NCBI GenBank assembly: GCA_963778655.1
Contig: CAVZVA010000009.1
Location: forward strand, 522,235 to 586,234
Source: an uncultured delta proteobacterium
GTDB lineage: Bacteria > Myxococcota_A > Polyangia > Polyangiales > JAFGIB01
DNA: 64,000 nucleotides
Direction: 5' to 3'
Positions 13,705 to 40,144 of the stretch are shown piece by piece. Within the stretch, counting starts at the first letter, position 1; every line of letters starts with the position of its first letter. The notes under the pieces are model-generated. The model had not been told where the DNA came from. It searched no databases and saw only the letters and a program-made list of their open reading frames with translations. Made by a program: the position numbers and the translations under genes.

Positions 13705-14628
13705 GTGGCCGCCCATGTCAGCTTGCAACGCGTGAGCGCAGAGCCACCCGCGCGGCGACGCAGCCCGATCGACGTCTTCCGCTACCTCGACTACCGGGCG
13801 TTTCTTGCCGATCTCTACCAGGCCAAGAAGCAGCGGGGCTTTTCCTATCGCGCTTTCTCGCGCGCGGCGGGGCTTGGCGCGCCGAACTACTTGAAGCTGG
13901 TGATCGCGGGCCAGCGCAACCTGACCAAGCCGATGGCCAAGCGCTTTGCCGGCGCCTGCGGGCTGCAAGGCGAAGCGGCCGAGTACTTCGAGCGGCTGGT
14001 GGAGTTCAACCAGGCCAGCACGGCGGCCAAGCGCAACGCCAGCTACGAGCAGCTCGGCGCGTTTCGGCGCTACCGCCAGGCGCAGAAGATCGAGCTCGCG
14101 CAGGCGGCCTATCACTCCCGCTGGTACTTGCCCGCCATCCGCGAGCTGTGCGCGAGCCCGGACTTTCGCGAGGACCCGGAGTGGCTCGCGAAAGTGCTGC
14201 TCCCGCCGATCAAGCCCAGTGAGGCCAGGCAGGCGCTCGACCAGTTGCTCGAGCTCGGCCTGCTCGAACGCGATGCGCGCGGCCGGCTGCGGCAGCACAG
14301 CGCGGTGGTGTCGACCGGCCCCGAAACGCGCAACATGAACGTGCGCAACTACCACGCCGAGATGATGCACCGGGCCACGCTTGCGATCGAGCTGGTGCCG
14401 GCCGCGGAGCGTGACATCTCGTCGCTGACGGTGTGCCTGGACGCCGACGGCCTGGCGCGGCTCAAGGCGCGCATCCAGGCGTTCCGGCGCGAGCTGATCG
14501 AGCTGTGCGAGAGCGAGCCCGGCCGCGCGCAGGTCGTGCAGGTGAATTTTCAGCTGTTTCCCCTGTCCCTTCGGATTTCGCCGCCTCGGCGCGGCAGGAA
14601 AGCTGCCTCGGAGGACCCCCATGCGTGA
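13705..14628 (+). CDS. TIGR02147-family protein (putative HTH-containing regulator)
   Basis: The N-terminus …IDVFRYLDYRAFLADLYQAKKQRGFSYRAFSRAAGLGAPNYLKLVIAGQRNLT… matches my recollection of TIGR02147. That family occurs in Fibrobacter, Bdellovibrio and myxobacteria. The overall length also fits. Confidence 0.75.
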   Translation: MAAHVSLQRVSAEPPARRRSPIDVFRYLDYRAFLADLYQAKKQRGFSYRAFSRAAGLGAPNYLKLVIAGQRNLTKPMAKRFAGACGLQGEAAEYFERLVEFNQASTAAKRNASYEQLGAFRRYRQAQKIELAQAAYHSRWYLPAIRELCASPDFREDPEWLAKVLLPPIKPSEARQALDQLLELGLLERDARGRLRQHSAVVSTGPETRNMNVRNYHAEMMHRATLAIELVPAAERDISSLTVCLDADGLARLKARIQAFRRELIELCESEPGRAQVVQVNFQLFPLSLRISPPRRGRKAASEDPHA

Positions 14629-15862: not shown

Positions 15863-16067
15863 CCGGTAGTGGCGCGAGCCGTCGCCCATCGCCCGGATGC
15901 GGTTCAGGGCAACTTCCGGGCGGTTCGGGGCTGCAGCGCAGCGCCGGCTTGACGCCTGTGCGGCCGTGACCGAGAGTACTTGCGTCTTGCGGCCGCCGTT
16001 GCGCGGAGCGCTCGACCGCCTGCGCTTGGCCGCTACCAACGTCGCAACCACCCGGGCACCCCCGACC

Positions 16068-17282
16068 GTGAGCAGCAACGAGATCGAGATCGCGCCGAGC
16101 GGCGTCGACTTCCGGCCCCTGCACGAGCGCATGCAGTGGTACGTCGACCAGGGCATTCTCCCCTGTTGCAGCACGCTGGTGATGAAGGGCACGGAGGTGA
16201 TCGACTTCCGCGCCTTCGGCTACCTCGATCTCGAGAGCCGGCGGCCGCTCGGGCCGGACTCGATCTACCGCATGTACTCCAACACCAAGCTCGTGACCTC
16301 GGTCGCGGCCATGATGTTGTTCGAGGCCGGCCGCTTCGGCCTGGACGATCCGCTTTCCGAGTACCTGCCCGCCTTCGCGCGGCCGCGCGTGCTGAAGCCC
16401 GATGCGCAGAGCATCGACGAGGTGGTGGAGGCGGTCGAGCCCATGCGCATGCGGCACGTGCTCAGCCACAGCGCGGGGCTGTCCTACGGCTTCCTCGAGC
16501 CGACCTCGGTCATCGACAGGGCCTACATCGCCGCCGGGCTGGGCGGCGCGCTCTCTTCCGGGACGCTCGAATCGCTATGCGGCACGCTCGCCAGCTTGCC
16601 GCTCGCCTATCAGCCCGGCAGCAGCTGGCGCTACAGCTTTTCGACCGACGTGGTGGCGCGCGTGATCGAGGTGCTGTCGGGGCTGCGCTTCGACGCCTTC
16701 CTCGAGCGCAATGTGTTCGAGCCGCTGGCCATGCGGGACACGGCGTTCTGGGTTCCGGAGGACAAGCGCGAACGCTTCACCACCATGTACGCGCCGCTCA
16801 ACTTTGTCGACCCGATGCGAGGCGGCCTGAGCAAGGCGGACGATGCGCGCAATGGTCTGTTCACCAAGCCGCCGTCGTTGCTCTCGGGCGGAGGCGGGCT
16901 GGTGTCCACGGTGCCCGACTACCTGAGCTTCCTGCGCGCGATCGTGTCCGGTGGAAGCTGGAACGGTGCGCGCTTGCTCAAGCCCGAGACGCTCGGGCTG
17001 ATGCGCACGAACCAGCTGGCTCCGAACGTGGGCGTGAAGCTCGCGTTCTGGCCGATGCCGAAGACGGTGTTCGGGCTCGGGTTTGCGCTCAAGACCGAGC
17101 CGGTCGGCGATGAGCCCGCCAGCGTGATCGGCGAGTATCATTGGGGCGGAATGGCCGGTACCCATTCCTGGATGGCGCCCCGGGTCGGCCTCACCGGGAT
17201 GTGTCTGACCCAGCTCATGCCGGGCTTCTGGCATCCGTTCAGCCACGACTTCAAGCAGCTCGCCTACGCGCTTGCAGGTTGA
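16068..17282 (+). CDS. serine hydrolase, beta-lactamase (class C/PBP4-like) family
   Basis: The S-x-x-K active-site motif is YSNTKLVTSVA. The surrounding fold-typical sequence is …GYLDLESRRPLGPDSIYRMYS…FGLDDPLSEYLPAF. The start is uncertain: GTG 16068 (VSSNEIEIAPS…) is proposed, and the ORF is open from ATG 15897. Confidence 0.8.
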   Translation: MSSNEIEIAPSGVDFRPLHERMQWYVDQGILPCCSTLVMKGTEVIDFRAFGYLDLESRRPLGPDSIYRMYSNTKLVTSVAAMMLFEAGRFGLDDPLSEYLPAFARPRVLKPDAQSIDEVVEAVEPMRMRHVLSHSAGLSYGFLEPTSVIDRAYIAAGLGGALSSGTLESLCGTLASLPLAYQPGSSWRYSFSTDVVARVIEVLSGLRFDAFLERNVFEPLAMRDTAFWVPEDKRERFTTMYAPLNFVDPMRGGLSKADDARNGLFTKPPSLLSGGGGLVSTVPDYLSFLRAIVSGGSWNGARLLKPETLGLMRTNQLAPNVGVKLAFWPMPKTVFGLGFALKTEPVGDEPASVIGEYHWGGMAGTHSWMAPRVGLTGMCLTQLMPGFWHPFSHDFKQLAYALAG

Positions 17283-17308
17283 GCCGGCGCCGCCGTCGTG
17301 CCGGCCGC

Positions 17309-18511
17309 TCAGGCGGGGCGGCCTTGCGTTTCTTGCACCAGGTTGTCCGCGCTCAGCTCCGAGAGCGCGGTGGTGCCTGTGAGCGCCATGGCGACGCGCA
17401 TCTCCTCCCGGATGATGCTCAGCACGTGCGCGACGCCGGCCTCTCCGGCCGCCGCCACGGCATAGGTCCATGCGCGTCCGATCAGGCACGCCCTGGCCCC
17501 GAGCGCGAGCAGCTTGATCACGTCGAGGCCGCTGCGCGCTCCGCCGTCGACCAGAACCTCCAGCCGATCGCCGACGCTCTCACAGATCGGCGCCAGCGCC
17601 GTCGCGGTCGCGCTCACGGAGTCGAGTTGCCGCCCGCCGTGATTGGAGACCACGATCGCGTCGGCTCCTGCGTCCGCGGCGCGGCGCGCGTCGTCCACGT
17701 CGAGGATGCCCTTGAGCGCGAGCTTGCCGGGCCAGTGCGCGCGCACCCACGCGAGGTCTTGCCAGCTCACGCTCGGATCCCACTGGCTGTCGACCCAGGC
17801 CTTGAACTTGCCCGGCGTACGCGCGCCCGGCACCGCAGCTTCCAGATTGCCGAAGGTCAGCGGCCGGCCCCCGAGCGCGACGTCGCGCACCCAGCGCGGT
17901 CGAGACAGCAGATCCCAAAGCACCCGCAGCCGCTTGCCCGGCGGCAATGCAACTCCGACGCCGTTGCGCGCATCGCGGTAACGCGCCCCGACCACCGCGA
18001 GATCCACCGTGAGCAGCAGCACCCGACAGCCGGCCTCGCGGGCGCGCGCCATCAGCGCTTCGGCGTAGCCGCGATCGCGCATCACGTAGAGTTGGAACCA
18101 CGGCGGTGTGCGGGTCGCGGCGCGCACTTCCTCGAGCGAGCAAATCGAAACCGTGGACTCGCAGAAGGGCACGCCGGCCTGCTCGGCCGCGCGCGCGGCC
18201 TGGACCTCGGCGCGGCGCGCAAACATCCCCGCCAGGCCAACCGGCGCCAGGATCACCGGCAGCGCGAGCGACTCCCCGAGCACCCGTACGCTGAGATCGA
18301 TGCTCGAGACGTCGCGCAGCACGCGCTGGCGCAGGGTCAGGCGCCGCAGCGCGTCGAGGTTCTCGCGCATGCTGTGCTCGGCGTAGGCTCCGCCGTCGAT
18401 GTAGTCGAAGAGCTGGCGCGGCAACCGCCGACGCGCGAGCTCGCGATAGTCCATCACGCTCGCGGGAGCGAGACCGAGCGATCGATCGCGGGGTAGGGTG
18501 ATCTCGGTCAT
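17309..18511 (-). CDS. lldD: FMN-dependent alpha-hydroxy-acid oxidase/dehydrogenase (L-lactate dehydrogenase LldD / glycolate oxidase family)
   Basis: Three family-typical segments are present: …YRELARRRLPRQLFDYIDGGAYAEHSMRENLDALRRLTLRQRVLRDVS…, …AIVVSNHGGRQLD… and …ALGARACLIGRAWTY…. Confidence 0.85.
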   Translation of the reverse strand: MTEITLPRDRSLGLAPASVMDYRELARRRLPRQLFDYIDGGAYAEHSMRENLDALRRLTLRQRVLRDVSSIDLSVRVLGESLALPVILAPVGLAGMFARRAEVQAARAAEQAGVPFCESTVSICSLEEVRAATRTPPWFQLYVMRDRGYAEALMARAREAGCRVLLLTVDLAVVGARYRDARNGVGVALPPGKRLRVLWDLLSRPRWVRDVALGGRPLTFGNLEAAVPGARTPGKFKAWVDSQWDPSVSWQDLAWVRAHWPGKLALKGILDVDDARRAADAGADAIVVSNHGGRQLDSVSATATALAPICESVGDRLEVLVDGGARSGLDVIKLLALGARACLIGRAWTYAVAAAGEAGVAHVLSIIREEMRVAMALTGTTALSELSADNLVQETQGRPA

Positions 18512-21291: not shown

Positions 21292-23583
21292 CTACCGCGC
21301 TTCCAGTGCCTGCAGCCGCGCGCGGATCTTGTCCGCGCCCCTGTCGTCCGGGCGCAGGCGCAGGAACTTGCGGAATGCGCGCGCCGCGTCGTGGGTGCGA
21401 CCCAGGCGCTCCAGCACCAGGCCTTGCCCGCGATAGGCAGGCGCATAGCTCCGATCGGCAGCGATCGCCTGCTTGTATTGCGTCGTGGCCGCCTCGAAGT
21501 CGCCGCGCAGCATCGCATCCGTGGCCTGGCGCGCCAGCTCGGCCGCGCGCGCGCGCCCAGCTGCCCGCTTGTCCGCTCGTGGCGCCTCGCGCTCGCGCGC
21601 CGCTCGAGTCCCGTGTGCGTGCTCGGACCGCGCCGAGCCGGCCTGCGTACGCCGGGAGACCGTGTCGGCAGCCGACCGCGCGGTTTCGTGCTCGGCCTCG
21701 TCCCCAGCTTCGGTTGCGTGCTCGGGCTCGGGCTCGGCTTGCTGCGCGCGGACGCTGTCCGCGCTCGCGGCCGGGGTCGCGGATTGCGGCTCGACCGCAC
21801 GCGGCGCCTGGGCGGCCGGCGGTGCAATCTGCTTCGCGGGCCCGACCGCGGGCTGCGGTTCGGTGGCTGTGGCCGCAGAGCGCTTTGGCATGGCGGCCGG
21901 CGCCGGAGGTGAGCGCCGCAGCGCGACGAAAGCAATCACTGCCACGGCCGCGAGCGCTGCCAGGGCGAGCCGGCTCAACGCGCGCCAGCGCGGCACGGCG
22001 CCCGCGTCGCTTGCGCGCTCGACCTCGAGCGGCGGCCGCAGCGTGTCTTCGTCGAGCCCGGGGGCCATGAGATCCCCCGTGGCCAGGGCCGAAGCCGGCG
22101 TGGGTTGGGTGCGCTCCGACAGCGGGTCTTGGGCTTGCGCCCGCGCGTCGCCGGGCGCGCTCTCGCCCGCGGCGATCGACGCGGCGTTCTGGGGCGGCAA
22201 CGCCTCGGTTGGCGCCGGCGCGGCGAGCTCGGTCACGCCTGAGCCGGCACCCGGTGCTGCTTCCTCTCCTGTCCATGGGCGCGGTCCGCCGGCCGCGGCT
22301 CCGCCGAGCGGCGACTTCAGCGCCGCCGCGTCGAGCTTCCAGGCCGGCAGCGCGGGCTTCGGCGCCCTGGCTCCCTTGCGCGCCGGCTGCGGCTTGGCGG
22401 CCGCGGGCCTACTCGCGGGACTCGTGCCTGAGGCGCGCCGGCTGGTGGTCTGTCTCTTCGTCGCTGCCGAGCCGGCCCTCGCGCCCTCGGCCTTGGGCGC
22501 GCCCGCGCGCGATCTCGACGAGGACGACGCGGCCTGCGCGTGGACCCGCCGCTTGGTCTGCCACACCGGCTGCGTGGGGCGGCGCTTGCCCCCGGGGGCC
22601 TGGGTCTGCGCGGGCGCGCTGCGGGGGGCGATGAACGGGCCGACCAGCGTGCGCGGCCGAGGAACGCGCCGCTCGGACGCGCTCTTGGCGTCCGGCGCGG
22701 GCATCTGGGCTGCGGCCGCCGCCAGCTCCCTCACCAGCTGCGCTGCGGAGCGCTGCCGCTTCCACTGCTCGCGCGCGAGGCCCCGCGCGAGCACATCCTC
22801 GAGCGCTTGCGGGAAGCGCTGGCCCGAGACCTGGGACAACGTCGGCGGCGGACCCTTGGCCTTCTCGCGCAGCAGCGCGGGCAGATCCTCGCACTCGAAC
22901 GGCAGGTTGCCCGTGATCAGCTCGAACGCCACGGTCGCCAGCGCATACACGTCGCTGGCCGGCTCGGAGGCGCCTCCGGCCAGCACCTCGGGCGCCATGA
23001 ACTCCGGCGTCCCGCTGGGCTCGAGCCAGACCTGCTGGACCAGCGGGTCAGCGGCGGCGATGCCGAAATCGAGCAGCAGGGCGGTCTCCTTGCCGTCGTC
23101 GCCGCGGATGTACATCAGGTTCTCGGACTTGATGTCGCGATGCACCAGCCCCTCGGCGTGCAGCGCGTCGAGCGCCGAGGCCACCCCCTCCAGCAAGACC
23201 GCGACGCGCTGCGGCGTCATCGGGCCTTCCTCTCCGAGCTGCGTGGCCAGGTCGGTGCCGGCGATCATCGGCATCACCAGATAGGGGCGGCCGTCGGGCA
23301 GGCTGCCCGAGTCCGAGACGCCGACCACGTGTCCGTGCGACAGCGAGCTGGCCAGCCGCGCCTCGTGGATGAAGCGCTCGACCGCGTCGAAATCGTCCAC
23401 GAAGGCCTCGTCCAGGACCTTGATCGCCACCTCGCGCTGCTGCTGCTCGTGCAGTGCGGCGTAGATGACGCTCATCCCGCCGCGGACGTGGACGCGCTCG
23501 ACCAGGTAGCGGTCGTTGATCCGGGTGCCGATCAGGGGGTCGGGGGCCTGCGCGGGCAGAGGCTTGCTCGGCGTCACGGACAT
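21292..23583 (-). CDS. Ser/Thr protein kinase with long disordered linker, TM segment and C-terminal TPR
   Basis: Hanks kinase motifs are present: VAIKVL, HRDIKSENLMY, DFGIAA, GTPEFMAPE. A TM helix is LALAALAAVAVIAFVAL. The C-terminal TPR-like segment is …MLRGDFEAATTQYKQAIAADRSYAPAYRGQGLVLERLGRTHDAARAFRKFL…. Confidence 0.9.
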   Translation of the reverse strand: MSVTPSKPLPAQAPDPLIGTRINDRYLVERVHVRGGMSVIYAALHEQQQREVAIKVLDEAFVDDFDAVERFIHEARLASSLSHGHVVGVSDSGSLPDGRPYLVMPMIAGTDLATQLGEEGPMTPQRVAVLLEGVASALDALHAEGLVHRDIKSENLMYIRGDDGKETALLLDFGIAAADPLVQQVWLEPSGTPEFMAPEVLAGGASEPASDVYALATVAFELITGNLPFECEDLPALLREKAKGPPPTLSQVSGQRFPQALEDVLARGLAREQWKRQRSAAQLVRELAAAAAQMPAPDAKSASERRVPRPRTLVGPFIAPRSAPAQTQAPGGKRRPTQPVWQTKRRVHAQAASSSSRSRAGAPKAEGARAGSAATKRQTTSRRASGTSPASRPAAAKPQPARKGARAPKPALPAWKLDAAALKSPLGGAAAGGPRPWTGEEAAPGAGSGVTELAAPAPTEALPPQNAASIAAGESAPGDARAQAQDPLSERTQPTPASALATGDLMAPGLDEDTLRPPLEVERASDAGAVPRWRALSRLALAALAAVAVIAFVALRRSPPAPAAMPKRSAATATEPQPAVGPAKQIAPPAAQAPRAVEPQSATPAASADSVRAQQAEPEPEHATEAGDEAEHETARSAADTVSRRTQAGSARSEHAHGTRAAREREAPRADKRAAGRARAAELARQATDAMLRGDFEAATTQYKQAIAADRSYAPAYRGQGLVLERLGRTHDAARAFRKFLRLRPDDRGADKIRARLQALEAR

Positions 23584-25496
23584 GGGGCGTTACTCCCATC
23601 CATACACTGACCCGACGCGCAGTGACAGCCGTCGCCAGTGCAGGCGTTTCCGCAGCCGCCGCAGTTCATGTCGTCGGTGCTCGTGTCCGTGCAGCCGCCC
23701 TGGCAGCACGCCTGCCCATTGGGGCATGCGCTGCAAGCGCCACAGGCATCGGCGACGCTGGTTGCGTCGCAGCACTGTGCGACGGCGGGGATGTCCACGC
23801 AGCCGCTGGGGCAGCAGGCCTGGCCCGCGCCGCAGCCGCCGCAGCCGCCGCAATGGTCCACGCTGCCGGTGTCGACGCACGCGTTGCCGCAGCAGGCCTG
23901 ACCCGCGCCGCAGCCGCCGCAACCGCCGCAATGGTCCACGCTGCCGGTGTCGACGCACGCGTTGCCGCAGCAGGCCTGACCCGCGCCGCAGCCGCCGCAA
24001 CCGCCGCAATGGTCCACGCTGCCGGTGTCGATGCACGCGCCGCCGCAGCAAGCCTGACCGGCACTGCAACCGCCGCAGCCGCCGCAGTGATCGACCGTCG
24101 TCGTGGGCACGCAGGTGCCGCCGCAACAGGCCGAGCTCGCGCCGCAGGCATTGCCGCAGCTGCCACAGTATTGCGGGTCCGAGCTCACGTCCCTGCACAC
24201 GCCGGCGCAGCACTCGGCACCCGCGCCACAGCGCGTGCCGCACGCACCGCAGTTCTGCGGGTCGGTCGCGAGCTGGAAGTCTTCGTCCACGTAGCCGTCG
24301 CAGTCCTCGTCGCTACCGTCGCACGCGGTCTCGGACGATTGCGGCGTCGGGGTCACGCACACCAAGTCGCTGCCCTTGCACTGCTGCGTGCCGAACAGGC
24401 ACACGCCCTGCTTCGCGAAGTCCAGGCACAGCAGGCCGAGCCCGGGCACGTCGTCGGTCAAGCGGTTGCAGTCGTCGTCCGAGCCCGGATTGGCGCAGCT
24501 CTCCGTGCCCGGCACGACCGAGCCCTCGCACGCACCGAAGGCGCCGTTGTGGCAGGTCTGCGTGCCGGCGCGGCAGATGCCCACGCCGGCGGTGCGCGCG
24601 GGGCCGCCGTAGCAGCGCTGGGTTTGCGAGCCCGTGCAGGGGCAGCCGTCGTCGATCTGGCCGTTGCAGTTCTCGTCGGCCGCCTCGGTGCCTCCGCACA
24701 CCTCCTGCGAAGGCACCACCGCACCACCGCACGCCTGCAGCTTGCCGTCCTTGCACACGCGCTTGCCCGCCTTGCACACGCCGGTGCAGGCGAAGCCGCC
24801 GCTTCCGTCGGCGGTGCAGCCGGGCATGTCCGCCGGGTAGCAGTTGACGTCGGTGCCGTTGTCGATCACGCCGTCACAGTCGTCGTCGATCCCGTTGCAG
24901 ACCTCGGCCGAGGGCCCGCCGCCAGCGCGGCACACCGGCACACCCTGCTCGCAGGCCAACACGCCCGCGCCGCAGGCGCCTTGACCCGTCACCGGACACG
25001 AGCCGAGCGCAATCTCTTCGTCGACCTTTCCGTCGCAGTCATCGTCTGCGCCGTTGCAAGCCTCACTGACCGGGGCGAGCTGGCCCACACAGGCCTGCAA
25101 GCTGGTGCCGTTGCACTGAGCCTTTCCGTCACGGCAGATGCCCTTGCCCCGTGTCTCGGGCGGGCCGAGGTAACACGGCGCGCCGGCCACGCAATTGCCC
25201 TGCGGCGTCGGGCTCCCGCTTCCGACCGAGCCCGAGCCCGAGCCGCCCGCGGTCGAGCCGGCCCCGCCGCCTTGCGCACCCCCGAGCCCCGAGCCCGAGC
25301 CGCCCTCGCCGGTTGCCGGCAGGCCCCCCGTGGCATCGGCCAGACAGTAATCGAGGTAGCAGTGCCCGGGCGGGCAGCTGGAGTCGCAGCCGTGCGCCCC
25401 GTTGGCCTTGTCGTGGAACGAGCAGCCCGCGACGCCTGCGAGCGGCAGCACAAGCAGCAGGCCGAGCCAGGCTGAGGAACAGCGAGCCCGAGTCAC
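23574..25496 (-). CDS. cysteine-rich lipoprotein with MopE-like CNGxDDDCDGxxDE motifs and tandem CGGCGGC repeats
   Basis: GTG 25496 gives VTRARCSSAWLGLLLVLPLAGVAGCS, a strong lipoprotein signal. Four motifs follow: CNGADDDCDGKVDEE, CNGIDDDCDGVIDNG, ENCNGQIDDGC and CDGSDEDCDGYVDED. Then come four 26-aa repeats …VDHCGGCGGCGAGQACCGNACVDTGS…. The stop overlaps the kinase start by 10 nt. In the ORF track it is fused in-frame to the upstream gene as a 991-aa ORF (23574-26549). Confidence 0.7.
   Translation of the reverse strand: MTRARCSSAWLGLLLVLPLAGVAGCSFHDKANGAHGCDSSCPPGHCYLDYCLADATGGLPATGEGGSGSGLGGAQGGGAGSTAGGSGSGSVGSGSPTPQGNCVAGAPCYLGPPETRGKGICRDGKAQCNGTSLQACVGQLAPVSEACNGADDDCDGKVDEEIALGSCPVTGQGACGAGVLACEQGVPVCRAGGGPSAEVCNGIDDDCDGVIDNGTDVNCYPADMPGCTADGSGGFACTGVCKAGKRVCKDGKLQACGGAVVPSQEVCGGTEAADENCNGQIDDGCPCTGSQTQRCYGGPARTAGVGICRAGTQTCHNGAFGACEGSVVPGTESCANPGSDDDCNRLTDDVPGLGLLCLDFAKQGVCLFGTQQCKGSDLVCVTPTPQSSETACDGSDEDCDGYVDEDFQLATDPQNCGACGTRCGAGAECCAGVCRDVSSDPQYCGSCGNACGASSACCGGTCVPTTTVDHCGGCGGCSAGQACCGGACIDTGSVDHCGGCGGCGAGQACCGNACVDTGSVDHCGGCGGCGAGQACCGNACVDTGSVDHCGGCGGCGAGQACCPSGCVDIPAVAQCCDATSVADACGACSACPNGQACCQGGCTDTSTDDMNCGGCGNACTGDGCHCASGQCMDGSNAPCP
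23814..24125. repeat. 78-bp tandem repeat (4 copies, the middle two near-identical) inside the Cys-rich lipoprotein gene
   Basis: The unit is gcaggcctgacccgcgccgcagccgccgcaaccgccgcaatggtccacgctgccggtgtcgacgcacgcgttgccgca. Copies lie at about 23814-23891, 23892-23969 and 23970-24047, with a degenerate copy to about 24125. The repeat is in-frame (26 aa). Confidence 0.9.
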
Positions 25497-26549
25497 AGGC
25501 TCGTCTCCCAGGTCCCGGACACGGCCAGACCGGCGGCGTGCGGGCCGATCAGCGGCGCCAGCGCGGTCTCGGTCCGGCCGCGCTTCGATTGCGCGATCGA
25601 GATCGAGCGCCAGCCACACCCCGCCGGCCGCAATCGCGGCGCCACCCACGCCCAGCAGCAGGCTGGCGGCAAGCGCTTGGTGATGGCCGAGCGTGCGCGT
25701 GCGTTCCGCGGCGTCGGCTTGCGCGGCCGTGGTCACCGGCAGCGCGGCGTAATTGTGCTCGGTGGCCTTCATCGCGGCGAACATCACCACGCCCGCCGTG
25801 ATTGCCACCACGCCCGCACCGGCGACCAGCAGCGGCGGCAAAGGCAGCACCGCGCCGCCGCGGTCGGCGGGCGTCGCACGCGCCGGCGCGGCAGTCTCCG
25901 CCGGTTTGGGCTCGGGCGCTGCCGCTTCTGCGGGTCGGTTGGCGGCTTCCTCGGCTGCGGATTGTTCGGCCTCGAACAGCTCGTGGACCATCCCGTCGAG
26001 CGCCGCGAGCTGAGCACGGGTGAGCTTGCTTCCCCGCCCGCCGCGGCTGACCGAGCGCGGCTCGCCCTCGCCCTCCGCATCGAAGCGCATCAGGCGCAGC
26101 ACGAGCGAGCCTCCGCGGCGAGCCACCGAGGGCACCACCAGCACCTGCGCCTCGAGCCGGTGCGCCACCGCGGAAAGGCAGCTCGGGCTCTCGTCTGTGC
26201 AGTCGATCGCGAGCTGCACGGCTTCGAGGTCGAGCGGCGGTGGCGGGAGCAGCTCGAGGAAGGACAGCTTCGCGACCGCGGCGCGAGTTTCGCGTTCGAG
26301 CTCCGCAGGCTTGCCCGAGCCGCCGGTCGGCCCGACGATCACGAGCACGCGCTTGGTGTCGTCCGCTCGGGCCTGCGCCGTGACGCTCGCGGTGAGCGCT
26401 GCCAAGAGCGCGTACAGCGCCCTACGGGATGCGAAACCGGGGCGCAGCCCGCCCCTCCATGACTCGCGCCAGCTCACAGAACGCCCGTCCGCCCGCACAC
26501 GCAGCTCCAGCGGAACTACAAGATGAGCTAGCACGCCGGCAAGCGACAC
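25493..26549 (-). CDS. secreted/membrane-anchored protein (signal peptide, alpha/beta domain, Pro/Ala linker, two TM helices); the 3' end appears frameshifted
   Basis: The signal-like segment is RRALYALLAALTASVTAQARA. TM helices are LLVAGAGVVAITAGVVMFAAM and LLLGVGGAAIAAGGVWLAL. After about nt 25604 the annotated frame drops to about 64% GC3. The +1 frame has about 95% GC3 (…TETALAPLIGPHAAGLAVSGTWETSL*). That frame ends at TGA 25495-25493, overlapping GTG 25496 as GTGA. The true start is uncertain (ATG 26549 or an internal GTG). Confidence 0.5.
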
Positions 26550-29376: not shown

Positions 29377-29868
29377 ATGTTGAAAGCCGATCTCTTCACC
29401 AGCCAATTCCCGAGCCTTTCGGTAGCGCTATCGCCAGCCGAGCTGGACGGCTTGCTCGCGGCCTTGGAGATTGAGCACATTGCCGCCGGCGAGACCCTCA
29501 TCACCCAGGGCACTCCGTCGGACGCGCTCTACCTGGTGTGGGAGGGCGCGCTCGACGTCGAGTTCGCGAGCAAGCGAGGCAACTCCCTCTCGCGGCTGGG
29601 GCCGGGTGAGGTGGCCGGCGAGGTGTCGCTGCTCGATCCGGGTCCGGCCACGGCAACCGTCTATTCCGACGCGGGCTGCACCGCCCTGGTGCTGCGCCGC
29701 GCGCGGCTCGAACGACTGTGGGCGGATCACCCCGAGACGGCGACACGCTTTCTGGCCCATCTGTGCCGAGAGTTGGCCCACCGGATCCGCAAGACCACGA
29801 TCGTGCTCAATCGCTCGCGCTCGCGACGGATGGCGACGGCCGCCGGAGAGGAGGGGAGGGGATGCTGA
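29377..29868 (+). CDS. stand-alone cyclic-nucleotide-binding (CAP effector) domain protein
   Basis: The sequence begins [63 protein letters not shown]. It continues …[24 protein letters not shown]…, a cNMP beta-barrel with a non-canonical phosphate-binding cassette. The stop overlaps the next start (ATGCTGA). Confidence 0.8.
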
Positions 29869-32800
29869 CCCTCGGTGACATCGCCGTCCTGGCCAAAGTC
29901 CCCCACTTCAGCGGCGTCTCGATGAACGACGTCACCTTGCTCTCGGAGCTGCTGACCGTCGCCGAGTACGGCGATGGAGAGCGGCTGATCCGGGAGGGCG
30001 ACACCGACGATGAGATCTTCATCCTGCTCTCGGGCGAGGTACGGGTCACAAGTGGCCGCCCGAGCCACGAACAGGAGCTGAGCCGCATGGGCCCCGGCGA
30101 CATGCTGGGCCTGCTCGCGCTGGTCGACAACGCGCCCCGCTCGGCATCTTGCATCGCCGTCGGCGGCGTGCGCGCCGCCCGCCTCACGCGCGAGGCCTAT
30201 CGAAAGGCGAGCACCGGCAGCCCGGCGCTCGCGCTCGCCTTCCATCGCGCCCTCGGGGCCCAGCTCGCGCGGGACTACCGCACGGTCGCCGCCCTGCTGG
30301 AGGCCGAGCTCCCGACTGCGGAGCGCCGAGCTGATCGCCCGACGTCGGCGGAGGCCACGGACTGCGACGTGGCCGTCCTCGGCGCGGGTCCGCTGGGCAT
30401 GATGTATGCCCAGTGGCTGCGACGCATGTACCCGGGTGCCCGCGTGGTCATGCTCGAACGCCGCGACATCCCCGGTTACAAGATCGGTGAGAGCACGCTG
30501 TCCACCACCGTTCGGGCCTTCCTGGACATGGGCTTCACCATGCCGCAGCTGCGCCGCCTGTTCGGCAACAAGACCGGGATCCGCTTCTTTTGGGTCGGGC
30601 CCGAGTCGGAACGACCGGAGCGAGAGGTGGACGTCGTGGACCTGGAGGAAACTTTCCAGGTCGAGCGCCGCGTGTTCGAGCTGGCGCTCCAGCGCCTCAC
30701 TCGCGAGGCCGGCATCGAGATCCGTACCGGCACCCAGGTGGAGATCGAGAGCAGCGACCTCGATGGCGTGGTCAAGAGGCTTGACTGCGTAGGCCCCCAC
30801 GGCGAGTACGCGCTGACGGCGAAGATCATCTGTGACGCCACCGGCCCGGCGGCGGTGCTGCCCCGTCACCTCGGCTTGTACCGCAAGGATCCGTCGCTGC
30901 ACGACAGCTTCCAGACGAACTGCTACTTCGCCTACTTCCGCCAGAAGAAGCCCGTGCCGCTCTTGCGCTGGCAGGACCCGGCGACGCGCCACCTGTGCAT
31001 GCCCCAGGGCTGGGTGTGGTTCATCACGCTGCACTCCTGGGAGTCGGCCGACGACCAGACGATCGCCGCGCTCGTGAACGACGTCATGGACCACAGCTCG
31101 CCCGACGATGCCGATCTGCCGTCACGGCGAGACCTCGCGAGCCGGCACGGCGCCGAGTTTTCGCTGCTCACCTCGATCGGCATCACCGTGCGCGAGGATA
31201 TGGACACGGCGTTGGACCTTCCCATCGAGCAGCGCTTCCAGCACTACGTGCAGCGTTACCCCGCGTTCGGGTGGATCATGGAGCACTACGAGCTCGTGGA
31301 GCAGCCGTACCGGGAGAAGCGGCGTCCCTATGCGGCCTTCCTGGGTCTTGCCCACGACTGCACCCAGATCGCGGGAGATGGGTGGGTCGCGATCGGTGAC
31401 TCCGCGCAGTTCAGCAATCCGTTGTTCAGCCACGGGCTCAACTACGGGAGTGGCACCGCCTACATGGCGGCGGTCAGCAGCGCTGAGGCCCTGGCCAGCG
31501 GGGACACCAGCCGCGCCGCTTTCTCCGCCTACGAACGCTACGGCCGCGAGACCTATCCCGTTTTGCTGCGGGAGACCGATTTTTTCTATCGCTCCTGGGC
31601 CCACCCCGACGGATTCGAGCGCACGCTGATGGCGAAGTTCCATTTTGGCGCGCTCGACGTGACGCAACGCGAGTCGTACAGCGAGACCGACCCCTGGGTC
31701 TTCGATCTGCTCAACCCCGAATGGCTGGCGTTGATGGAGCGCGTTCGCGAGGTGGAGAAGCGCTACGAGGCCGCAGGCGATGCGGACGGGCTCGCGGCGG
31801 CGATCGCCGCCATCGTGGATCCCTTCAACGCCATCTGCCGACAGAAGGCAAAGCAGCTCGGCCTCGACTATGGAGAGATCTTCACCAACTACGACGGAGA
31901 AGGTCGACGACTCGAGGGCAGGGACAAGCCGCGTGGCTTCTTCAACGGGTATCAGTGCCCCACCTGCATGCTCTGGCAGGACGACACGCTCGAGCGCTGC
32001 CCCATCTGCGCCACGGCGAACGCACGGCGTCACGTGCCGACGCAGTCCGCGCGGGAGAACGATTCCGACCAGGCGCCCGTGCTGCAGTCGACAGAACGAG
32101 CCGAGGACCGCGGCGGCGCTGCGAGCACGCGCCCGAGCAATGAACCCGACGGCAGGCCGAGCACGCTCGAGGCCGATCGCGCCAACCGCCGGCGCTTCCG
32201 GTCCCTGCGGGTTGCGGCGATTCGGGAAGAGACCGCCACCGCCCGCTCGCTCGTGTTCGAGGTCCCGGAGCAGGAGCGGGAGCAGTTCCGTTACGCGCCT
32301 GGCCAGTTCCTGACGTTGCAGGTCGAGATCGACGGCGAGCCGCTGAATCGGTGCTACTCGCTGTCCAGCGTGCCGAGCGCGGGCGAGCCACCCACCATCA
32401 CGGTGAAGCGCATCGCTGGTGGCAGGGTGTCCAATTGGCTCTGCGATCGCGTGAAGGTGGGCGAGAGGCTCGACGTGCTGCCACCCGACGGTCGCTTCAC
32501 GGTGCCGGACCGCCCCGGAGACCTGTTCCTGTTCGCCGCCGGCAGCGGGATCACACCGGTGTGGTCGATCGCGCAAGAGGCGCTCGTGACCACTCCCCGC
32601 AACGTCCGCCTGCTCTACGTGAATCGAAGCGTAGAGGAGACCATCTTTCGTGGTGCAATCACGGAGCTCCGCAATCGAGCCGCCCGCCGGTTCAAGTTGA
32701 TCGAGCGCATCGGCAGGCGCGAAGGCCGGCTGGACACGCGGGACGTGCAGGCCTACTGCGACGGCCAGACCCGGGGTCTGTTCTTCGTTTGCGGGCCGTG

Positions 32801-33209
32801 GGGATTCATGGACGTGGTCGAGGAAGGCCTGCTCGACATGGGCGTCGCGCCCGAAGACCTGCACGTGGAGCGCTTCGCCTCGCCGCTGAAGGACCGCGCC
32901 GTGCTCGCGCCAGCGGCGCAGCACGGCGAGCTGCCTGCCAGCCTGGTCACATTCGATCTGTTCGGCGTGGAGCACCAGCTGCGTTGCGCTCCGGACCAGA
33001 CGCTCACCGAGGCTGCCTTCGCGGCGGGCGTTGCAGTGCCGACGTCGTGCGAGGAGGGCTACTGCGGCACCTGCATCGGCCGACTGACGGAAGGGAAAGT
33101 GGAGTGCGCGGTCGACGACGCCCTGTCCAAGGGCCAGAAGAAGCGCGGCTTCGTGCTGGCCTGTCAGGCTAAGCCCCGCAGCGCCTCACTCCGCGTCATA
33201 TTCGAATAG
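29862..33209 (+). CDS. multidomain fusion: cNMP-binding domain, FAD-dependent halogenase-like domain, Zn ribbon, FNR-type FAD/NAD(P) reductase, 2Fe-2S ferredoxin
   Basis: A GGAGAGGAGGGGAGGGG purine run precedes ATG 29862. The cNMP cassette is GDMLGLLALVDNAPRSAS. Halogenase-like motifs are VAVLGAGPLG, YKIGEST, GNKTGIRFFW, GWVWFIT and IGDSAQFSNPLFSHG. The Zn ribbon is CPTC-x11-CPIC. The reductase motifs are RCYSLSS and AAGSGITP. The ferredoxin motif is CEEGYCGTCIGRL…LACQA. Confidence 0.85.
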   Translation: MLTLGDIAVLAKVPHFSGVSMNDVTLLSELLTVAEYGDGERLIREGDTDDEIFILLSGEVRVTSGRPSHEQELSRMGPGDMLGLLALVDNAPRSASCIAVGGVRAARLTREAYRKASTGSPALALAFHRALGAQLARDYRTVAALLEAELPTAERRADRPTSAEATDCDVAVLGAGPLGMMYAQWLRRMYPGARVVMLERRDIPGYKIGESTLSTTVRAFLDMGFTMPQLRRLFGNKTGIRFFWVGPESERPEREVDVVDLEETFQVERRVFELALQRLTREAGIEIRTGTQVEIESSDLDGVVKRLDCVGPHGEYALTAKIICDATGPAAVLPRHLGLYRKDPSLHDSFQTNCYFAYFRQKKPVPLLRWQDPATRHLCMPQGWVWFITLHSWESADDQTIAALVNDVMDHSSPDDADLPSRRDLASRHGAEFSLLTSIGITVREDMDTALDLPIEQRFQHYVQRYPAFGWIMEHYELVEQPYREKRRPYAAFLGLAHDCTQIAGDGWVAIGDSAQFSNPLFSHGLNYGSGTAYMAAVSSAEALASGDTSRAAFSAYERYGRETYPVLLRETDFFYRSWAHPDGFERTLMAKFHFGALDVTQRESYSETDPWVFDLLNPEWLALMERVREVEKRYEAAGDADGLAAAIAAIVDPFNAICRQKAKQLGLDYGEIFTNYDGEGRRLEGRDKPRGFFNGYQCPTCMLWQDDTLERCPICATANARRHVPTQSARENDSDQAPVLQSTERAEDRGGAASTRPSNEPDGRPSTLEADRANRRRFRSLRVAAIREETATARSLVFEVPEQEREQFRYAPGQFLTLQVEIDGEPLNRCYSLSSVPSAGEPPTITVKRIAGGRVSNWLCDRVKVGERLDVLPPDGRFTVPDRPGDLFLFAAGSGITPVWSIAQEALVTTPRNVRLLYVNRSVEETIFRGAITELRNRAARRFKLIERIGRREGRLDTRDVQAYCDGQTRGLFFVCGPWGFMDVVEEGLLDMGVAPEDLHVERFASPLKDRAVLAPAAQHGELPASLVTFDLFGVEHQLRCAPDQTLTEAAFAAGVAVPTSCEEGYCGTCIGRLTEGKVECAVDDALSKGQKKRGFVLACQAKPRSASLRVIFE

Positions 33210-33312
33210 GCCTATCGGGATACGCCCCGCTCCAAGCGCGGGACAGCAAGACCGGCGGGCGCGCGCCGCAGGCGCGCTTGCTTCTCAATCCTGCGGGTGC
33301 GAAAGGAGAGGC

Positions 33313-36874: not shown

Positions 36875-39800
36875 TTGCCGATTCGCGATTTCGTCTACGC
36901 TGCGCCAGTTGCGATGTCGATCGAACCCGAGCTGTCGGTAGCGTCGTTCGCGCCACAGGGGAACGGTCTTGCAGCGGCCGATGCGGAGCTGCAGCAGAGC
37001 CGCCCGAGACAGCGAGCGCTTTGCCTCGGCGACCTCGTGCTCGACGGGGTTCGTTTCGAGCTTCGGCGCGGGCAAGAACGGCTTCCGGTCCAGCCCCGGG
37101 TCTTGCAGCTGCTGCTTCATCTGGTCGAGCACCGTGACCGTCCGGTCCCCGATGAAGAGCTGCTGCGCGTGGTGTGGCCCGACGAGTGCGTGACTCGAGC
37201 TTCGATCAAGCGTGCCGTCCACGGCGCGCGCAAGGCGCTAGGCGATGACGGCGAGTCGCAGCTGAGCATCCGCACGGTGAGGGGCCGAGGTTACCAATTC
37301 GTGCTTCCGGTCTCGGAGTACGAGCCCCAGCTTTCGGAGCCTCCAGACAGTGCGCCATCTCGAGCGGCGACAAGCACCCCGCCGCCCAACGCCGGCGCGC
37401 CGATGCGGGATGCTTTCGTCGGCCGGCGCAGTGCGCTCGCCATGCTCGAGGCGAGCGCGCGCGACGCATTCAACGGCCACTGCCGAATGCTGCTGCTGAT
37501 CGGAGAGCCCGGCATCGGCAAGACACGGACGCTGGTCGAGCTTGGGCATCGAGCGGCAATGGCGGGCGGAGACACGTGGTTCGGTCATTGCATCGAAGAC
37601 GAAGGGGCGCCGGCGTTCTGGCCCTGGACTCAAGTTCTGCGCGACTGTGAACGCGATCGCGGTTCGCGGGACCTGATCGCGTTGATGGGCAAGAGTGTCG
37701 CGGACATTGCGGAAGGCATCCCGGAGCTCCGCGAATGGCTGCCGGACCTGCCGCTTGCACCTTCGATCGGCGAACAATCGGCGCGCTTTCGCTTCTTCGA
37801 TGGCGTCGTCGCCTTCCTCAAGCGCGCCGCCGAGCAGCGTCCGATTGCGCTGCTGTTCGACGACCTCCAGCGCGCGGATCAACCGACTCTGCGCTTGCTC
37901 TCATTCGTCGCTCGGAACCTGGACAATTCGCGCGTGCTGATTGCGTGCTCCATGAGACCAATCGCGTCCCAGCCCGTCGCCGTCCGTGAGTCGATCACGA
38001 CCTTCATTCAACAGGTCCCCGCCACATACGTCGAGCTCCAGGGTCTGAGCCGGCAGGATGTCGATGAGTTCCTCGAGCTGCGGGTGGGTCAGCGTGGTCC
38101 GGAAGCGGTCGTGGACCAACTGCACCAGCTCACCGGCGGCAGCCCGTTGTTCTTGCAGCAGATCGCATACGGCTGGCAGACGAGCGGACGGCTCGATGGC
38201 GCCATCGACTGGGGACAGCTGCCTTCGACCACGTACGGCCAAGGTCTGGCCGGCAGCATCGCGCAGCGCATCGGCGTGATCGCGCCGCCGACGCTTGAGG
38301 TATTGCGCGTCGCGGCCGTGCTGGGCTCCGAGTTCAGTGTAGCTCGACTCGCACGGCTGCTTGGGACCGGTGCCGCTGTGGTGTTGCCAGAGCTCGGCGC
38401 TGCCAAGGCTGCGGGTGTCGTCCGTGAGGTCCCGAACGCGATCGGAACGTTTTGCTTCGCGCACGGGTTGATCCGCAATGCATTGTACGAGCAGCTTGGT
38501 GTCGACGCGCGCGCCGCTCTCCATGGAAAGGCCGGCACCCTGCTCGAGGCTGAGGCGCCTTCCGCGGACGCCGGCGTGCCGGAGCTGGCGCACCACTTCG
38601 CGCAAGCCTGGCCAGCGCACGACGCGGGTAAGGCGCTGCCCTACGCGCTGCGGGCAGCGGAAGCGGCGACGAGGCGTTTGGCGTACGAGGAAGCAGTCGG
38701 CCACCTGGATCGCGCATTGCACATCCACGCGAACGGCGCGGGTGATCCGGAACGGCGCATGCGCCTGCTGCTAAGCAAGGGCGAGGCGTTGAGTCACGCT
38801 GCGGAAGTTGCGCGAGCACGTGCCGCGTTGTTCGACGCGGTCGCGCTAGCCCGGCAGCTGCGCGCCACCGACGTAATTGCGCGCGCGGCCAAGCTGATGG
38901 CGGTGGTACCCGAGTCCGGAAGCGTGGATTGGGAGCAAATCGGCCTGTTGCGCGAGGCGTTGGGTGCGATAGCGGCCGACGATCCCGAGCGCCCGTATCT
39001 GCTGGCACTGCTCGCGAAATGCAGCACTTACTCGACAGATTCCGCTGCGCGCGAGGCGCTTGCGCTGACGGCGCTGGAACGTTCCAAACAGATCACGGAT
39101 CTGCGACTGCGAGCCGAGACGTTGCAACAGTGTCACCGCGCGCTTGCCGAGCCAAAACATCTTGCCCAGCGCGAGGTCATCGGCGAAGAGCTCGTGTGCC
39201 TGGGCCACAAGAGCGGCGATCACATGGCGCTTTGGCATGCCGCCACGGCGCAAGTCCAGAACTGCCTGGAGCGCGGTGACTTCACCGGCGTCGATCGCGC
39301 CATTTCGGTGATCGAGAGTCTCGCCACGCAGATGCGCGAGCCGATGTTTCGCTGGTACCTCGCGGTCTTTCGCGCCATGCGGCACTACGTCGCAGGCCAG
39401 TTTTCGGAAGCCCAAGACCTGGCGCTCAAGGCGTTGGACATGGGCGCCTGCGTCGGCGAAGCGACCGCGCGTCACGTCTACTGCATGCAGGTCACTGGCT
39501 GGTTGCGTGTCTTGGGCCGTACGTCGGAGTGTGAGGTGCTCGTGCGCGAGATGACGCTGCGCTATCCGGCGTTGAGCGGATGGCGTTTGATGCAGGTCGG
39601 GCTCGAGGCCGATCGCGGGCGCAACGAGCCTGCCCGCCGGTTTCTCGCCCAGATCTACGACGATCCTTCGTTGATGCACGAGCCCTTCACGATGTCGCTG
39701 CTGTGCTTTCTGGCGGAGTTGGGCAGCTACTTCGGCAGCCCCGAGATGACTCGCTGGCTGTACGAGCTCATGCTTCCCTACGCCGAGCTGTGGGGAAATT

Positions 39801-40144
39801 GCGGATTCGGTCTCAACACCTATGGTCCGATCGGACGCCAGCTTGGCGCGCTCGCGATCCGTATCGGTGATCTCGATGCGGCAGACAGCCACCTCGAAGC
39901 AGCACTATCGAGCTGCGAGGCCGCGAGGTCGTCCACCTTCACTAGCTTGACCTGCCTCGTCTATGCGCGGGCCCTGATCAAGCGGCAGACACCGGCGGCA
40001 CGGCGATGCGCGCAGGAGATGCTGGTCCGATCCGAGGAGCTGAATCGCCCGCAAGGTTGGAACGGCAACTCGACCCACGCGCGCTTCATCGCATGGCGCG
40101 CCGGCCTTACGCTGCCCGACATGGGCCATGGGAAGGCTCAGTAG
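36875..40144 (+). CDS. STAND-type transcriptional regulator: OmpR/PhoB winged-helix DNA-binding domain, P-loop NTPase, TPR-like repeats
   Basis: The wHTH is …LCLGDLVLDGVRFELRRGQERLPVQPRVLQLLLHLVEHRDRPVPDEELLRVVWPD…IRTVRGRGYQF. The Walker A motif is LLLIGEPGIGKTR and Walker B is ALLFDDLQRAD. The roughly 650-aa C-terminus is helical repeats. ATG 36914 (MSIEPE…) is an alternative start. Confidence 0.85.
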   Translation: MPIRDFVYAAPVAMSIEPELSVASFAPQGNGLAAADAELQQSRPRQRALCLGDLVLDGVRFELRRGQERLPVQPRVLQLLLHLVEHRDRPVPDEELLRVVWPDECVTRASIKRAVHGARKALGDDGESQLSIRTVRGRGYQFVLPVSEYEPQLSEPPDSAPSRAATSTPPPNAGAPMRDAFVGRRSALAMLEASARDAFNGHCRMLLLIGEPGIGKTRTLVELGHRAAMAGGDTWFGHCIEDEGAPAFWPWTQVLRDCERDRGSRDLIALMGKSVADIAEGIPELREWLPDLPLAPSIGEQSARFRFFDGVVAFLKRAAEQRPIALLFDDLQRADQPTLRLLSFVARNLDNSRVLIACSMRPIASQPVAVRESITTFIQQVPATYVELQGLSRQDVDEFLELRVGQRGPEAVVDQLHQLTGGSPLFLQQIAYGWQTSGRLDGAIDWGQLPSTTYGQGLAGSIAQRIGVIAPPTLEVLRVAAVLGSEFSVARLARLLGTGAAVVLPELGAAKAAGVVREVPNAIGTFCFAHGLIRNALYEQLGVDARAALHGKAGTLLEAEAPSADAGVPELAHHFAQAWPAHDAGKALPYALRAAEAATRRLAYEEAVGHLDRALHIHANGAGDPERRMRLLLSKGEALSHAAEVARARAALFDAVALARQLRATDVIARAAKLMAVVPESGSVDWEQIGLLREALGAIAADDPERPYLLALLAKCSTYSTDSAAREALALTALERSKQITDLRLRAETLQQCHRALAEPKHLAQREVIGEELVCLGHKSGDHMALWHAATAQVQNCLERGDFTGVDRAISVIESLATQMREPMFRWYLAVFRAMRHYVAGQFSEAQDLALKALDMGACVGEATARHVYCMQVTGWLRVLGRTSECEVLVREMTLRYPALSGWRLMQVGLEADRGRNEPARRFLAQIYDDPSLMHEPFTMSLLCFLAELGSYFGSPEMTRWLYELMLPYAELWGNCGFGLNTYGPIGRQLGALAIRIGDLDAADSHLEAALSSCEAARSSTFTSLTCLVYARALIKRQTPAARRCAQEMLVRSEELNRPQGWNGNSTHARFIAWRAGLTLPDMGHGKAQ

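Follow-up and report, generated by a model that had tools for sequence, protein, structure and literature searches.

Flavin-dependent halogenases (FDHs) are sought-after catalysts, the limits of which are the separate flavin reductase and the wasteful leakage of free reduced flavin. AetF is one of the single-component FDHs. Bmp5 and XanH have been reviewed as further FDHs that work without a separate flavin reductase, and MalA has been described as the first zinc-binding FDH (PMC8407142). The present analysis concerns a 64-kb stretch of DNA (referred to below as the window) from an uncultured delta proteobacterium (assembly GCA_963778655.1, contig CAVZVA010000009.1, positions 522,235 to 586,234), in which two overlapping genes were investigated: gene 1, encoding a small protein with a cyclic nucleotide-binding (CNB) domain termed CNB-A, and gene 2, encoding a large fusion of a second such domain (CNB-B), a halogenase, an FNR-type reductase and a [2Fe-2S] ferredoxin domain (Table 1). 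Sequence comparison suggests that the two genes form an operon for a ligand-gated, self-sufficient, zinc-binding FDH of the MalA type, a reading to which we assign a probability of roughly 0.55. A preliminary description of the same DNA, made from the letters alone, had already listed the modules of the fusion, and each of them was recovered by Pfam, motif or fold matches.

The central domain was assigned by profile, sequence and structure comparison. The gene 2 protein matches Trp_halogenase (PF04820) in Pfam with 55.6 bits against a cut-off of 21. When residues 160–748 were compared with all PDB sequences by phmmer, the best match was MalA′ (E 7e-51), followed by PltA (1.4e-20), Bmp2, Mpy16, CmlS, ChlB4 and CndH (1e-20 to 1e-14). 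The full-length protein was modelled with AlphaFold2 (AF2), which gave a mean predicted local distance difference test score (pLDDT) of 83 and a predicted template modelling score (pTM) of 0.63, with confident domains and two linkers as the only disordered parts. MalA′ was also the best fold match of this model in the PDB (Foldseek, E 1e-40, TMt 0.75); the 40 matches after it comprised PltM, PltA, CtcP, Mpy16, ChlB4, CmlS, FasV, RadH, CndH, Bmp2 and 3nix, an unannotated flavoprotein and the only one of the top 45 matches that is not an FDH.

Conservation of the FDH motifs was counted in a family alignment of 27 sequences. The glycines of GxGxxG (G174, G176 and G179; residues 174–179), K207 and E210 of the YKIGEST motif, W384 and W386 of GWVWFIT (residues 383–389) and the GD motif (G512–D513) are invariant, and I388 is present in 26 of the 27. 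The pentapeptide WVWFI (residues 384–388) aligns with WVWVI of MalA′, with Thr replacing the Pro of WxWxIP; MalA′ (WVWVIR) likewise lacks this Pro. K237, the lysine of GNK within RLFGNKTG, aligns with the catalytic K108 of MalA′ in both phmmer and MAFFT and is Lys in all but one of the family sequences (26/27). An acidic catalytic partner was also looked for, corresponding to E494 in MalA′ and E346 in PrnA-type enzymes. By MAFFT alignment, Asp599 is the probable equivalent of the catalytic E494 of MalA′, which phmmer leaves in a short insertion; the position is occupied by D in 25 sequences, by E in one and by N in one. One fused homolog (P0008, 1109 residues, from a 5-kb JGI contig) carries Gln for the catalytic Lys (FSMQTG), YKPEESLL instead of YKVGESTL, and departs from other conserved motifs too; this protein may be inactive or divergent.

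Two of the four cysteines of the zinc ribbon (C699 and C713) are invariant in the 27 sequences, and the other two (C702 and C716) are present in 26. QCPTC (C699, C702) was aligned by both phmmer and MAFFT with QCSGC (C597, C600) of MalA′, the second zinc pair of which we take to be C613 and C616. Sequence and modelled fold assign the central domain to the MalA type of FDH, with predicted zinc binding, and because it is of this type the ribbon is read as the C-terminal element of the halogenase, a predicted metal site, and not as a separate module. The preliminary description had made the ribbon a module of its own, which we do not follow, and had given it as CPTC-x11-CPIC; the ribbon and its position stand, whereas the spacing is x10. 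Its central proposal, a flavin-dependent halogenase domain, agrees with the sequence and fold comparisons, both of which place the domain among FDHs and in no other FAD family. The catalytic Lys and the WxWxI variant that it recognised align with their MalA′ counterparts, and GxGxxG, YKIGEST, GNK, GWVWFIT, GD, RCYSLSS and AAGSGITP all lie where it had placed them.

The C-terminal part shows the order of motifs known from FNR-[2Fe-2S] oxygenase reductases, namely RxYS for the flavin (RCYSLSS at residue 830; R830, Y832, S833), GxGxxP for NAD (AAGSGITP at residue 892; G894, G896, P899) and Cx4Cx2Cx29C for the cluster (CEEGYCGTC at residue 1063; C1063, C1068, C1071, C1101), in keeping with the FNR-type module and plant-type 2Fe-2S ferredoxin described beforehand, on which Pfam and the motifs agree. 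Eight of eight fused homologs keep the four cluster cysteines as well as both the flavin and the NAD motif. The best NCBIfam model for the C-terminal 337 residues is PaaE, with 230.1 bits against an equivalog cut-off of 420.8; the other reductase models listed, GbcB, BenC and MmoC among them, score lower. Fold matches of this portion in Foldseek include phthalate dioxygenase reductase (PDR, 2pia) and the reductase domain of CYP116B46. Identity with PaaE or KshB was rejected, the NCBIfam score being far under the cut-off, and the module is classed by sequence as a PaaE/PDR-type reductase that is not PaaE itself. The conservation of the cluster cysteines and of the flavin and NAD motifs in all fused forms argues that the 2Fe-2S relay is really used. 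Since these cysteines are strict in the fused forms, and since the separately encoded reductases described below also carry Fer2, electrons probably pass from the cluster to bound FAD and not by way of released FADH2; for a simple Fre-like reductase of free flavin, a 2Fe-2S domain would be unnecessary.

In CNB-B, the Pfam domain cNMP_binding (PF00027) covers residues 35–115 (E 6.8e-18), and the best PDB matches are the CNB-B domain of protein kinase A (PKA) RI-alpha and CRP-family proteins; for CNB-A, too, PKA and CRP structures lead the matches. Alignment to PKA and CRP cassettes confirmed that both phosphate-binding cassettes are non-canonical, as had been stated in the preliminary description (Leu84 in the fused protein, Ala91 in the small one), and that the fused cassette retains its Arg. 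CNB-A keeps Glu82 at the ribose-binding Glu position. None of 23 aligned CNB-A orthologs from several phyla has Arg at the phosphate-binding position, where Ala, Ser or Thr predominate; in CNB-B, 21 of 24 sequences carry Leu at position 84 and none carries Glu, and Arg93 is Arg in 17 of 24 members. Because the pairing of CNB-A with CNB-B and the cassette substitutions are kept across phyla, the altered cassettes argue for a selected binding site and not for decay, and the two domains are, judged by sequence, a conserved pair of sensor-type units. Since both deviations from the consensus are family-wide, cAMP and cGMP become less likely as ligands. Epac also lacks the ribose-binding Glu yet binds cAMP, so that loss of this residue is not decisive; CRP-family effector domains can bind other ligands, such as chlorophenols in CprK. 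PADLOC returned Pycsar matches (E 1e-9 to 1e-15) that are limited to the CNB domains. A Pycsar-type anti-phage effector was rejected, the similarity being restricted to CNB, with no pyrimidine cyclase homolog found in the window by tblastn and no defence-island context.

Gene 1 ends with TGC TGA and shares 7 nt with the start of gene 2, the overlap reading ATGCTGA, in agreement with the coupling to a 163-residue CNB protein given in the preliminary description. The gene 2 ATG at 29862 is preceded by a putative ribosome-binding stretch, GGAGAGGAGGGGAGGGG, and the N-terminus that it defines coincides in the alignment with the N-termini of the homologs. The frame is intact over 1115 codons without interruption, and the GC content at third codon positions (GC3) is uniform (0.85) across the open frame 29610–33209 that contains gene 2. 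The hairpin behind gene 2 (Table 1) may be the operon terminator, although this is weakly indicated: terminator-type hairpin sites were no more numerous in the consensus scan than in shuffled sequence. No site was found in a sigma-70 promoter scan, and no Rfam family, for example a fluoride riboswitch, matched the region including its upstream part at E≤1.

The homolog search yielded, besides the window protein, eight proteins with the full architecture (1109–1313 residues, 52–61% identity) and about 50 CNB–FDH proteins of approximately 720 residues without a reductase. The nearest relatives (72–75% identical) are encoded by three genes in a row at loci L001–L004, L009 and L011: a CNB-only gene (159 residues, 4-nt overlap), a CNB–FDH–zinc ribbon gene (775 residues) and, 50 nt downstream in another frame, a gene for an FNR/2Fe-2S protein of 335 residues that is 70% identical to residues 779–1115 of the window protein. 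As the nearest relatives encode the same parts separately, the window gene is a natural fusion of the second and third genes. The linker between halogenase and reductase (residues 717–778) differs in length and sequence between fused homologs, and it matches the C-terminal tail plus intergenic gap of the split relatives. The fusion found in the window occurs also in L005 and in Bacteroidota metagenome-assembled genomes (MAGs; Roseivirga, Flavobacteriales) of about 40% GC, and the fused homologs span genomes of about 40% GC (Roseivirga MAG) and about 70% GC. A sequencing artefact or frameshift behind the fusion, which the preliminary description had named as a risk, was rejected: the frame is intact, GC3 is uniform, the fusion recurs in eight independent proteins, and the split form is reproducible across samples in L001–L004 and L009.

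In a tblastn matrix of 85 loci, a CNB-A homolog lay directly upstream of each CNB–FDH gene whose upstream DNA was present. At four homolog loci (L001, L005, L008 and L086) its end and the FDH start share 4 nt, and in P0052 and the Bacteroidota proteins P0004 and P0007 it is fused N-terminally, as a tandem CNB–CNB–FDH. The close CNB-A homologs are all CNB-only (about 110–280 residues, most of them 150–190), and none is fused to another enzyme. In the same matrix the reductase was found only in the subclade with split or fused forms, and it is, by this sequence survey, an accessory of one subclade: the closest relatives encode it separately, and most of the family lacks it. Calothrix, Dulcicalothrix, Ignavibacteria and Rhodothermia have FDH versions that lack a CNB domain (about 44% identity); one such locus offered no informative context. 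The family is rare, with 67 clusters at 50% identity reaching E≤1e-30 among 1.84 billion representatives, and P0006 (1196 residues) is the only one among the matches listed that is long enough for a fused reductase. In Actinomycetota (L029, L031, L032, L033, L035 and L086), distant FDH paralogs (22–31% identity) lie a few kb from the CNB–FDH gene; the Labedaea locus L086 carries another Trp_halogenase-family gene (nt 1–656) about 8 kb upstream.

Table 1. Features of the two-gene locus; positions refer to the window.
Feature	Position	Strand	Basis
Gene 1, CNB-A, stand-alone 163-aa CNB-domain protein	29377..29868	+	Pfam cNMP_binding, E 4.1e-17
CNB-A phosphate-binding cassette, Ala91 at the phosphate-binding Arg position	29617..29658	+	alignment to GELSLFDPGPRTAT of 2pqq and PKA cassettes
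Purine-rich putative ribosome-binding stretch for gene 2, within the 3′ end of gene 1	29846..29858	+	motif match only, read from sequence
Gene 2, 1115-aa fusion: CNB-B / MalA-type FDH / Zn ribbon / linker / FNR / 2Fe-2S	29862..33209	+	
CNB-B domain, aa 1–149, with long C-terminal helix aa 121–149	29862..30308	+	Pfam; AF2 pLDDT mostly 85–95
CNB-B phosphate-binding cassette (GDMLGLLALVDNAPRSAS), Arg93 kept, Leu84 for the ribose-binding Glu	30096..30149	+	alignment to PKA FGEIALLMNRPRAAT
Disordered linker CNB-B to FDH, aa 150–162	30309..30347	+	AF2 pLDDT <50
FDH catalytic domain, aa 163–690	30348..31931	+	phmmer, Foldseek, family alignment
Lys237	30570–30572	+	aligned with MalA′ K108
Asp599	31656–31658	+	MAFFT alignment with MalA′ E494
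Cys4 zinc ribbon CPTC-x10-CPIC (C699, C702, C713, C716)	31956..32009	+	CxxC alignment with MalA′
Polar disordered linker of about 60 aa, aa 717–778, halogenase to reductase	32010..32195	+	AF2 pLDDT 25–37 over aa 728–770
FNR-type module: flavin-binding aa 784–879 (RCYS), NAD(P)H-binding aa 891–987 (GSGITP)	32211..32822	+	Pfam FAD_binding_6, NAD_binding_1
Plant-type [2Fe-2S] ferredoxin domain, aa 1035–1106	32964..33179	+	Pfam Fer2, E 9.5e-16
GC-rich hairpin and T-containing tail, 52 nt past the gene 2 stop	33261..33277	+	consensus scan

We infer the following course of events for halogenation, electron supply and gating, and for the ligand and substrate involved. A hydride from NAD(P)H would reduce the flavin of the C-terminal module, from which electrons would pass singly through the [2Fe-2S] cluster to the FAD of the halogenase domain within one polypeptide. 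From the chemistry of the family, reduced FAD, O2 and halide would then give hypohalous acid, guided to Lys237 with the assistance of Asp599, and an electron-rich substrate bound beneath the C-terminal zinc-ribbon region would be halogenated. CNB-B and the separately translated CNB-A would act as a tandem or heterodimeric sensor that switches the enzyme upon binding of a small ligand, which may be neither cAMP nor cGMP because the binding cassettes are altered. A wider proposal, doubtful as a whole and put forward tentatively, is that the FAD stays bound and is reduced in situ through an NAD(P)H–flavin–[2Fe-2S]–FAD wire, as a third mode of electron supply to FDHs; that a small signal other than a cyclic nucleotide switches catalysis via CNB-A and CNB-B; and that halogenation, or controlled production of hypohalous acid, outside natural-product clusters serves as a regulated response (signalling, defence or detoxification) in Chloroflexota, Bacteroidota, Actinomycetota and their relatives.

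Several points weigh against a ligand-gated, self-sufficient halogenase. Reductases of the PaaE, GbcB, BenC and MmoC types normally feed metal centres and not flavins, and we know of no reported precedent for direct transfer from 2Fe-2S to FAD in an FDH; flavin–cluster–flavin relays exist elsewhere, for example with PyrK of DHODB. The reductase is not intrinsic to the chemistry, because most family members have none within 8 kb. Each CNB cassette lacks one canonical cyclic-nucleotide contact, 7 of 24 fused CNB domains have no Arg93, and the CNB domains could be purely structural. E494 of MalA′, aligned with Asp599 in MAFFT, falls within a three-residue insertion/gap in phmmer. The loci give no clue to the substrate, the neighbours beyond the two genes not being conserved among the homolog loci. 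The enzyme might instead be a halogenase to which an NAD(P)H:flavin reductase is merely tethered, giving free FADH2, with the CNB units as degenerate, ligand-free scaffolding or dimerisation domains. The FDH of the many members without a linked reductase presumably accepts diffusible FADH2. Flavin reductases such as Fre belong to the FNR family, a long disordered stretch links the halogenase to the reductase, and the departures of both cassettes from the canonical form, together with the loss of Arg93 in several members, would suit vestigial CNB units. The 2Fe-2S cysteines, however, are strict in the fused forms and Fer2, which hydride transfer to free flavin would not require, is present in the split reductases as well, and the retention across phyla of the CNB pairing and of specific cassette substitutions indicates selection; we therefore consider this combination unlikely.

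FDH-fold enzymes with WxW can also be monooxygenases, as is the case with QhpG, which has the FDH fold and conserved Trp181 and Trp183 and for which the authors propose a ferredoxin as a possible direct electron donor (PMC7876137). With this precedent, the catalytic domain could be a flavin monooxygenase (hydroxylase), perhaps acting on a peptide or protein residue like QhpG, LodB or GoxB and receiving electrons directly from the fused ferredoxin-type reductase. NCBIfam gave sub-threshold matches to QhpG (65.9 bits) and to GoxB and LodB (about 42–44 bits) that are comparable to that of CmlS (70 bits), and the missing biosynthetic-cluster context fits a protein-modifying or housekeeping role. 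A hydroxylase is nevertheless distinctly unlikely in view of the 45 best structural matches, all halogenases but for 3nix, of the lead of MalA′ in phmmer by about 30 orders of magnitude in E-value, of the FDH-defining Lys, aligned and kept in nearly all members, and of the absence of QhpC/QhpD or LodA/GoxA partner genes nearby. A reductive use of the ferredoxin electrons in place of O2 activation, either for double-bond reduction as in geranylgeranyl reductase or for reductive dehalogenation, was likewise weighed. Ferredoxin is the donor for some members of the geranylgeranyl reductase fold, and weak matches to such models were obtained (TIGR02032, 61.5 bits; DGGGPL reductase; MenJ). A self-sufficient reductive dehalogenase naturally fused to its reductase exists, though on a corrinoid scaffold (PMC10463259). 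The geranylgeranyl reductase matches are far under the cut-off (61.5 versus 158.8 bits) and much weaker than the FDH matches, the conserved Lys and WxWxI are hallmarks of halogenases, and no prenyl or quinone pathway genes lie nearby, so that a reductive function is highly improbable.

The proposed halogenase operon is flanked upstream in the window by divergent AKR and ABM genes and downstream by an Abhydrolase_10 gene, which agrees with the alpha/beta hydrolase and AKR reported previously. No polyketide synthase or non-ribosomal peptide synthetase gene was found among the large open reading frames (ORFs) of the 64-kb window scanned with Pfam, as the preliminary description had also noted for the flanks, nor in any homolog locus examined. 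Clustering of the neighbours pointed to an ABC exporter at 8 of the 24 loci and to a Ser/Thr kinase at 5 of them. A link between the ABC exporter and the operon was rejected, since the clustering reflects generic ATPase-domain similarity among unrelated transporters; a true exporter ortholog is shared by L001 and L009 only, and it is 97% identical between these species-level MAGs. At these two loci (L001, 6885–9358; L009, 640–2562) a MarR regulator and the ABC exporter (640 residues) stand immediately upstream of the halogenase genes on the same strand, and both are absent from the window. In L006/L007, from a Roseivirga-like MAG, a TauE-family permease and a Ser/Thr kinase (5832–7924) lie upstream of a tandem-CNB fusion, and an MBL-fold protein with a weak Apyc1-like match and two TPR–guanylate-cyclase proteins (12485–17797) lie downstream. 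These neighbours may hint at real cyclic-nucleotide signalling, a context that is not conserved elsewhere. A TauE gene is also found near the halogenase genes in L001.

The rest of the 64 kb contains, among other genes, kinases, a giant GH94 glucan-synthase-like gene and a desaturase with its reductase. The giant ORF (49883–58462, minus strand, 2858 residues) contains Glycoamylase, GH94 supersandwich and GH94 catalytic domains, and its predicted product is similar to cyclic beta-1,2-glucan synthases or phosphorylases. At 59601–62059 on the minus strand, a further FNR/2Fe-2S reductase (NAD_binding_1 and Fer2, 416 residues) is encoded directly upstream of an FA_desaturase (415 residues); from their domains the two look like a separate oxygenase–reductase pair. 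An extremely Cys-rich protein of 991 residues (23574–26549, minus strand) contains near-identical tandem repeats of the type CGGCGGCGAGQACCGNACVDTGSVDH, with MopE-like and Stig1-like motifs. An AurF-like diiron N-oxygenase homolog (PF11583, E 1e-13; 12281–13525, plus strand) lies about 16 kb upstream of the operon. A regulator of 1089 residues with an OmpR-type winged helix and AAA_16 (36875–40144, plus strand), of the large ATP-binding type, is encoded 3.7 kb downstream on the same strand as the operon and showed no link to it in other loci.

The architecture has so far gone unnoticed in public annotation. The homologs are labelled in JGI and NCBI as “3-ketosteroid 9alpha-monooxygenase subunit B”, “flavin-dependent dehydrogenase” or “cyclic nucleotide-binding domain-containing protein”, the first of which covers the reductase module only and misses the halogenase. 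A full-text search of the literature gave no paper in which an FDH is connected to a CNB domain or to a 2Fe-2S/FNR reductase, which accords with the earlier statement that no FDH was known to be fused in this way or gated by cNMP domains. The architecture is also rare. The enzyme may be a self-powered, signal-controlled halogenase outside antibiotic-type gene clusters, and our interest in it is moderately high, conditional on biochemical confirmation. The occurrence of a rare family in several phyla, never within a biosynthetic cluster, points to a physiological use of enzymatic halogenation; the sensor domains, if the reading is true, would be the first sign of post-translational control of halogenation by a small ligand; and the natural occurrence of fused and split forms permits their direct comparison.

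Compared with MalA/MalA′, the malbrancheamide halogenase of Malbranchea aurantiaca (PDB 5WGR–5WGZ), the window protein shares GxGxxG, the catalytic lysine (K108 = K237), WVWVI/WVWFI, GD, a helical C-terminal region and a zinc-site CxxC, at an identity of only about 25%. H253 and C112/C128 of MalA′ are not conserved, and its E494 has no unambiguous equivalent, Asp599 being the candidate. MalA is fungal, stands in an alkaloid gene cluster and has no CNB domain, whereas the window protein is bacterial and has one; the zinc-binding type, known from one fungal pathway, thus has bacterial relatives. MalA is moreover listed among the ordinary FDHs and not among the reductase-fused or single-component ones (PMC8407142), none of the latter having been described with FNR and [2Fe-2S] or with a sensor domain. 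Bmp5, XanH and AetF are self-sufficient likewise, in that no flavin reductase has to be supplied separately, so that the self-sufficiency which the preliminary description held to be unusual has precedents, while the FNR/2Fe-2S route and the CNB domains are new. Unlike in these single-component enzymes, the electron source here would be a C-terminal trio of domains, or a separate gene in close relatives.

The sensor part is shared at the level of the CNB matches with the Mycobacterium acetyltransferase Pat, the Bdellovibrio EAL enzyme Bd1971 and PycTIR, which also join an N-terminal CNB domain to an enzymatic output; a halogenase as output is hitherto unreported, and the sensor of the window operon is a conserved pair of differing CNB units. 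The reductase part has the domain order FAD_binding_6, NAD_binding_1 and C-terminal Fer2, and the motifs, in common with PaaE, KshB and phthalate dioxygenase reductase, whereas a diiron or Rieske oxygenase partner is absent here. The closest architectural analogue, by analogy of domain layout, is P450-RhF/CYP116B with a halogenase replacing the P450. CYP116B enzymes such as CYP116B46 (PDB 6LAA, 6KBH) follow the same logic of an N-terminal O2-activating domain and a C-terminal PDR-like NAD(P)H/flavin/[2Fe-2S] module; they differ in having an unrelated catalytic domain and in the acceptor, which is haem there and would be a flavin here. If the proposed reading is true, this natural wiring of a halogenase to an NAD(P)H/[2Fe-2S] reductase would parallel that of self-sufficient P450-RhF.

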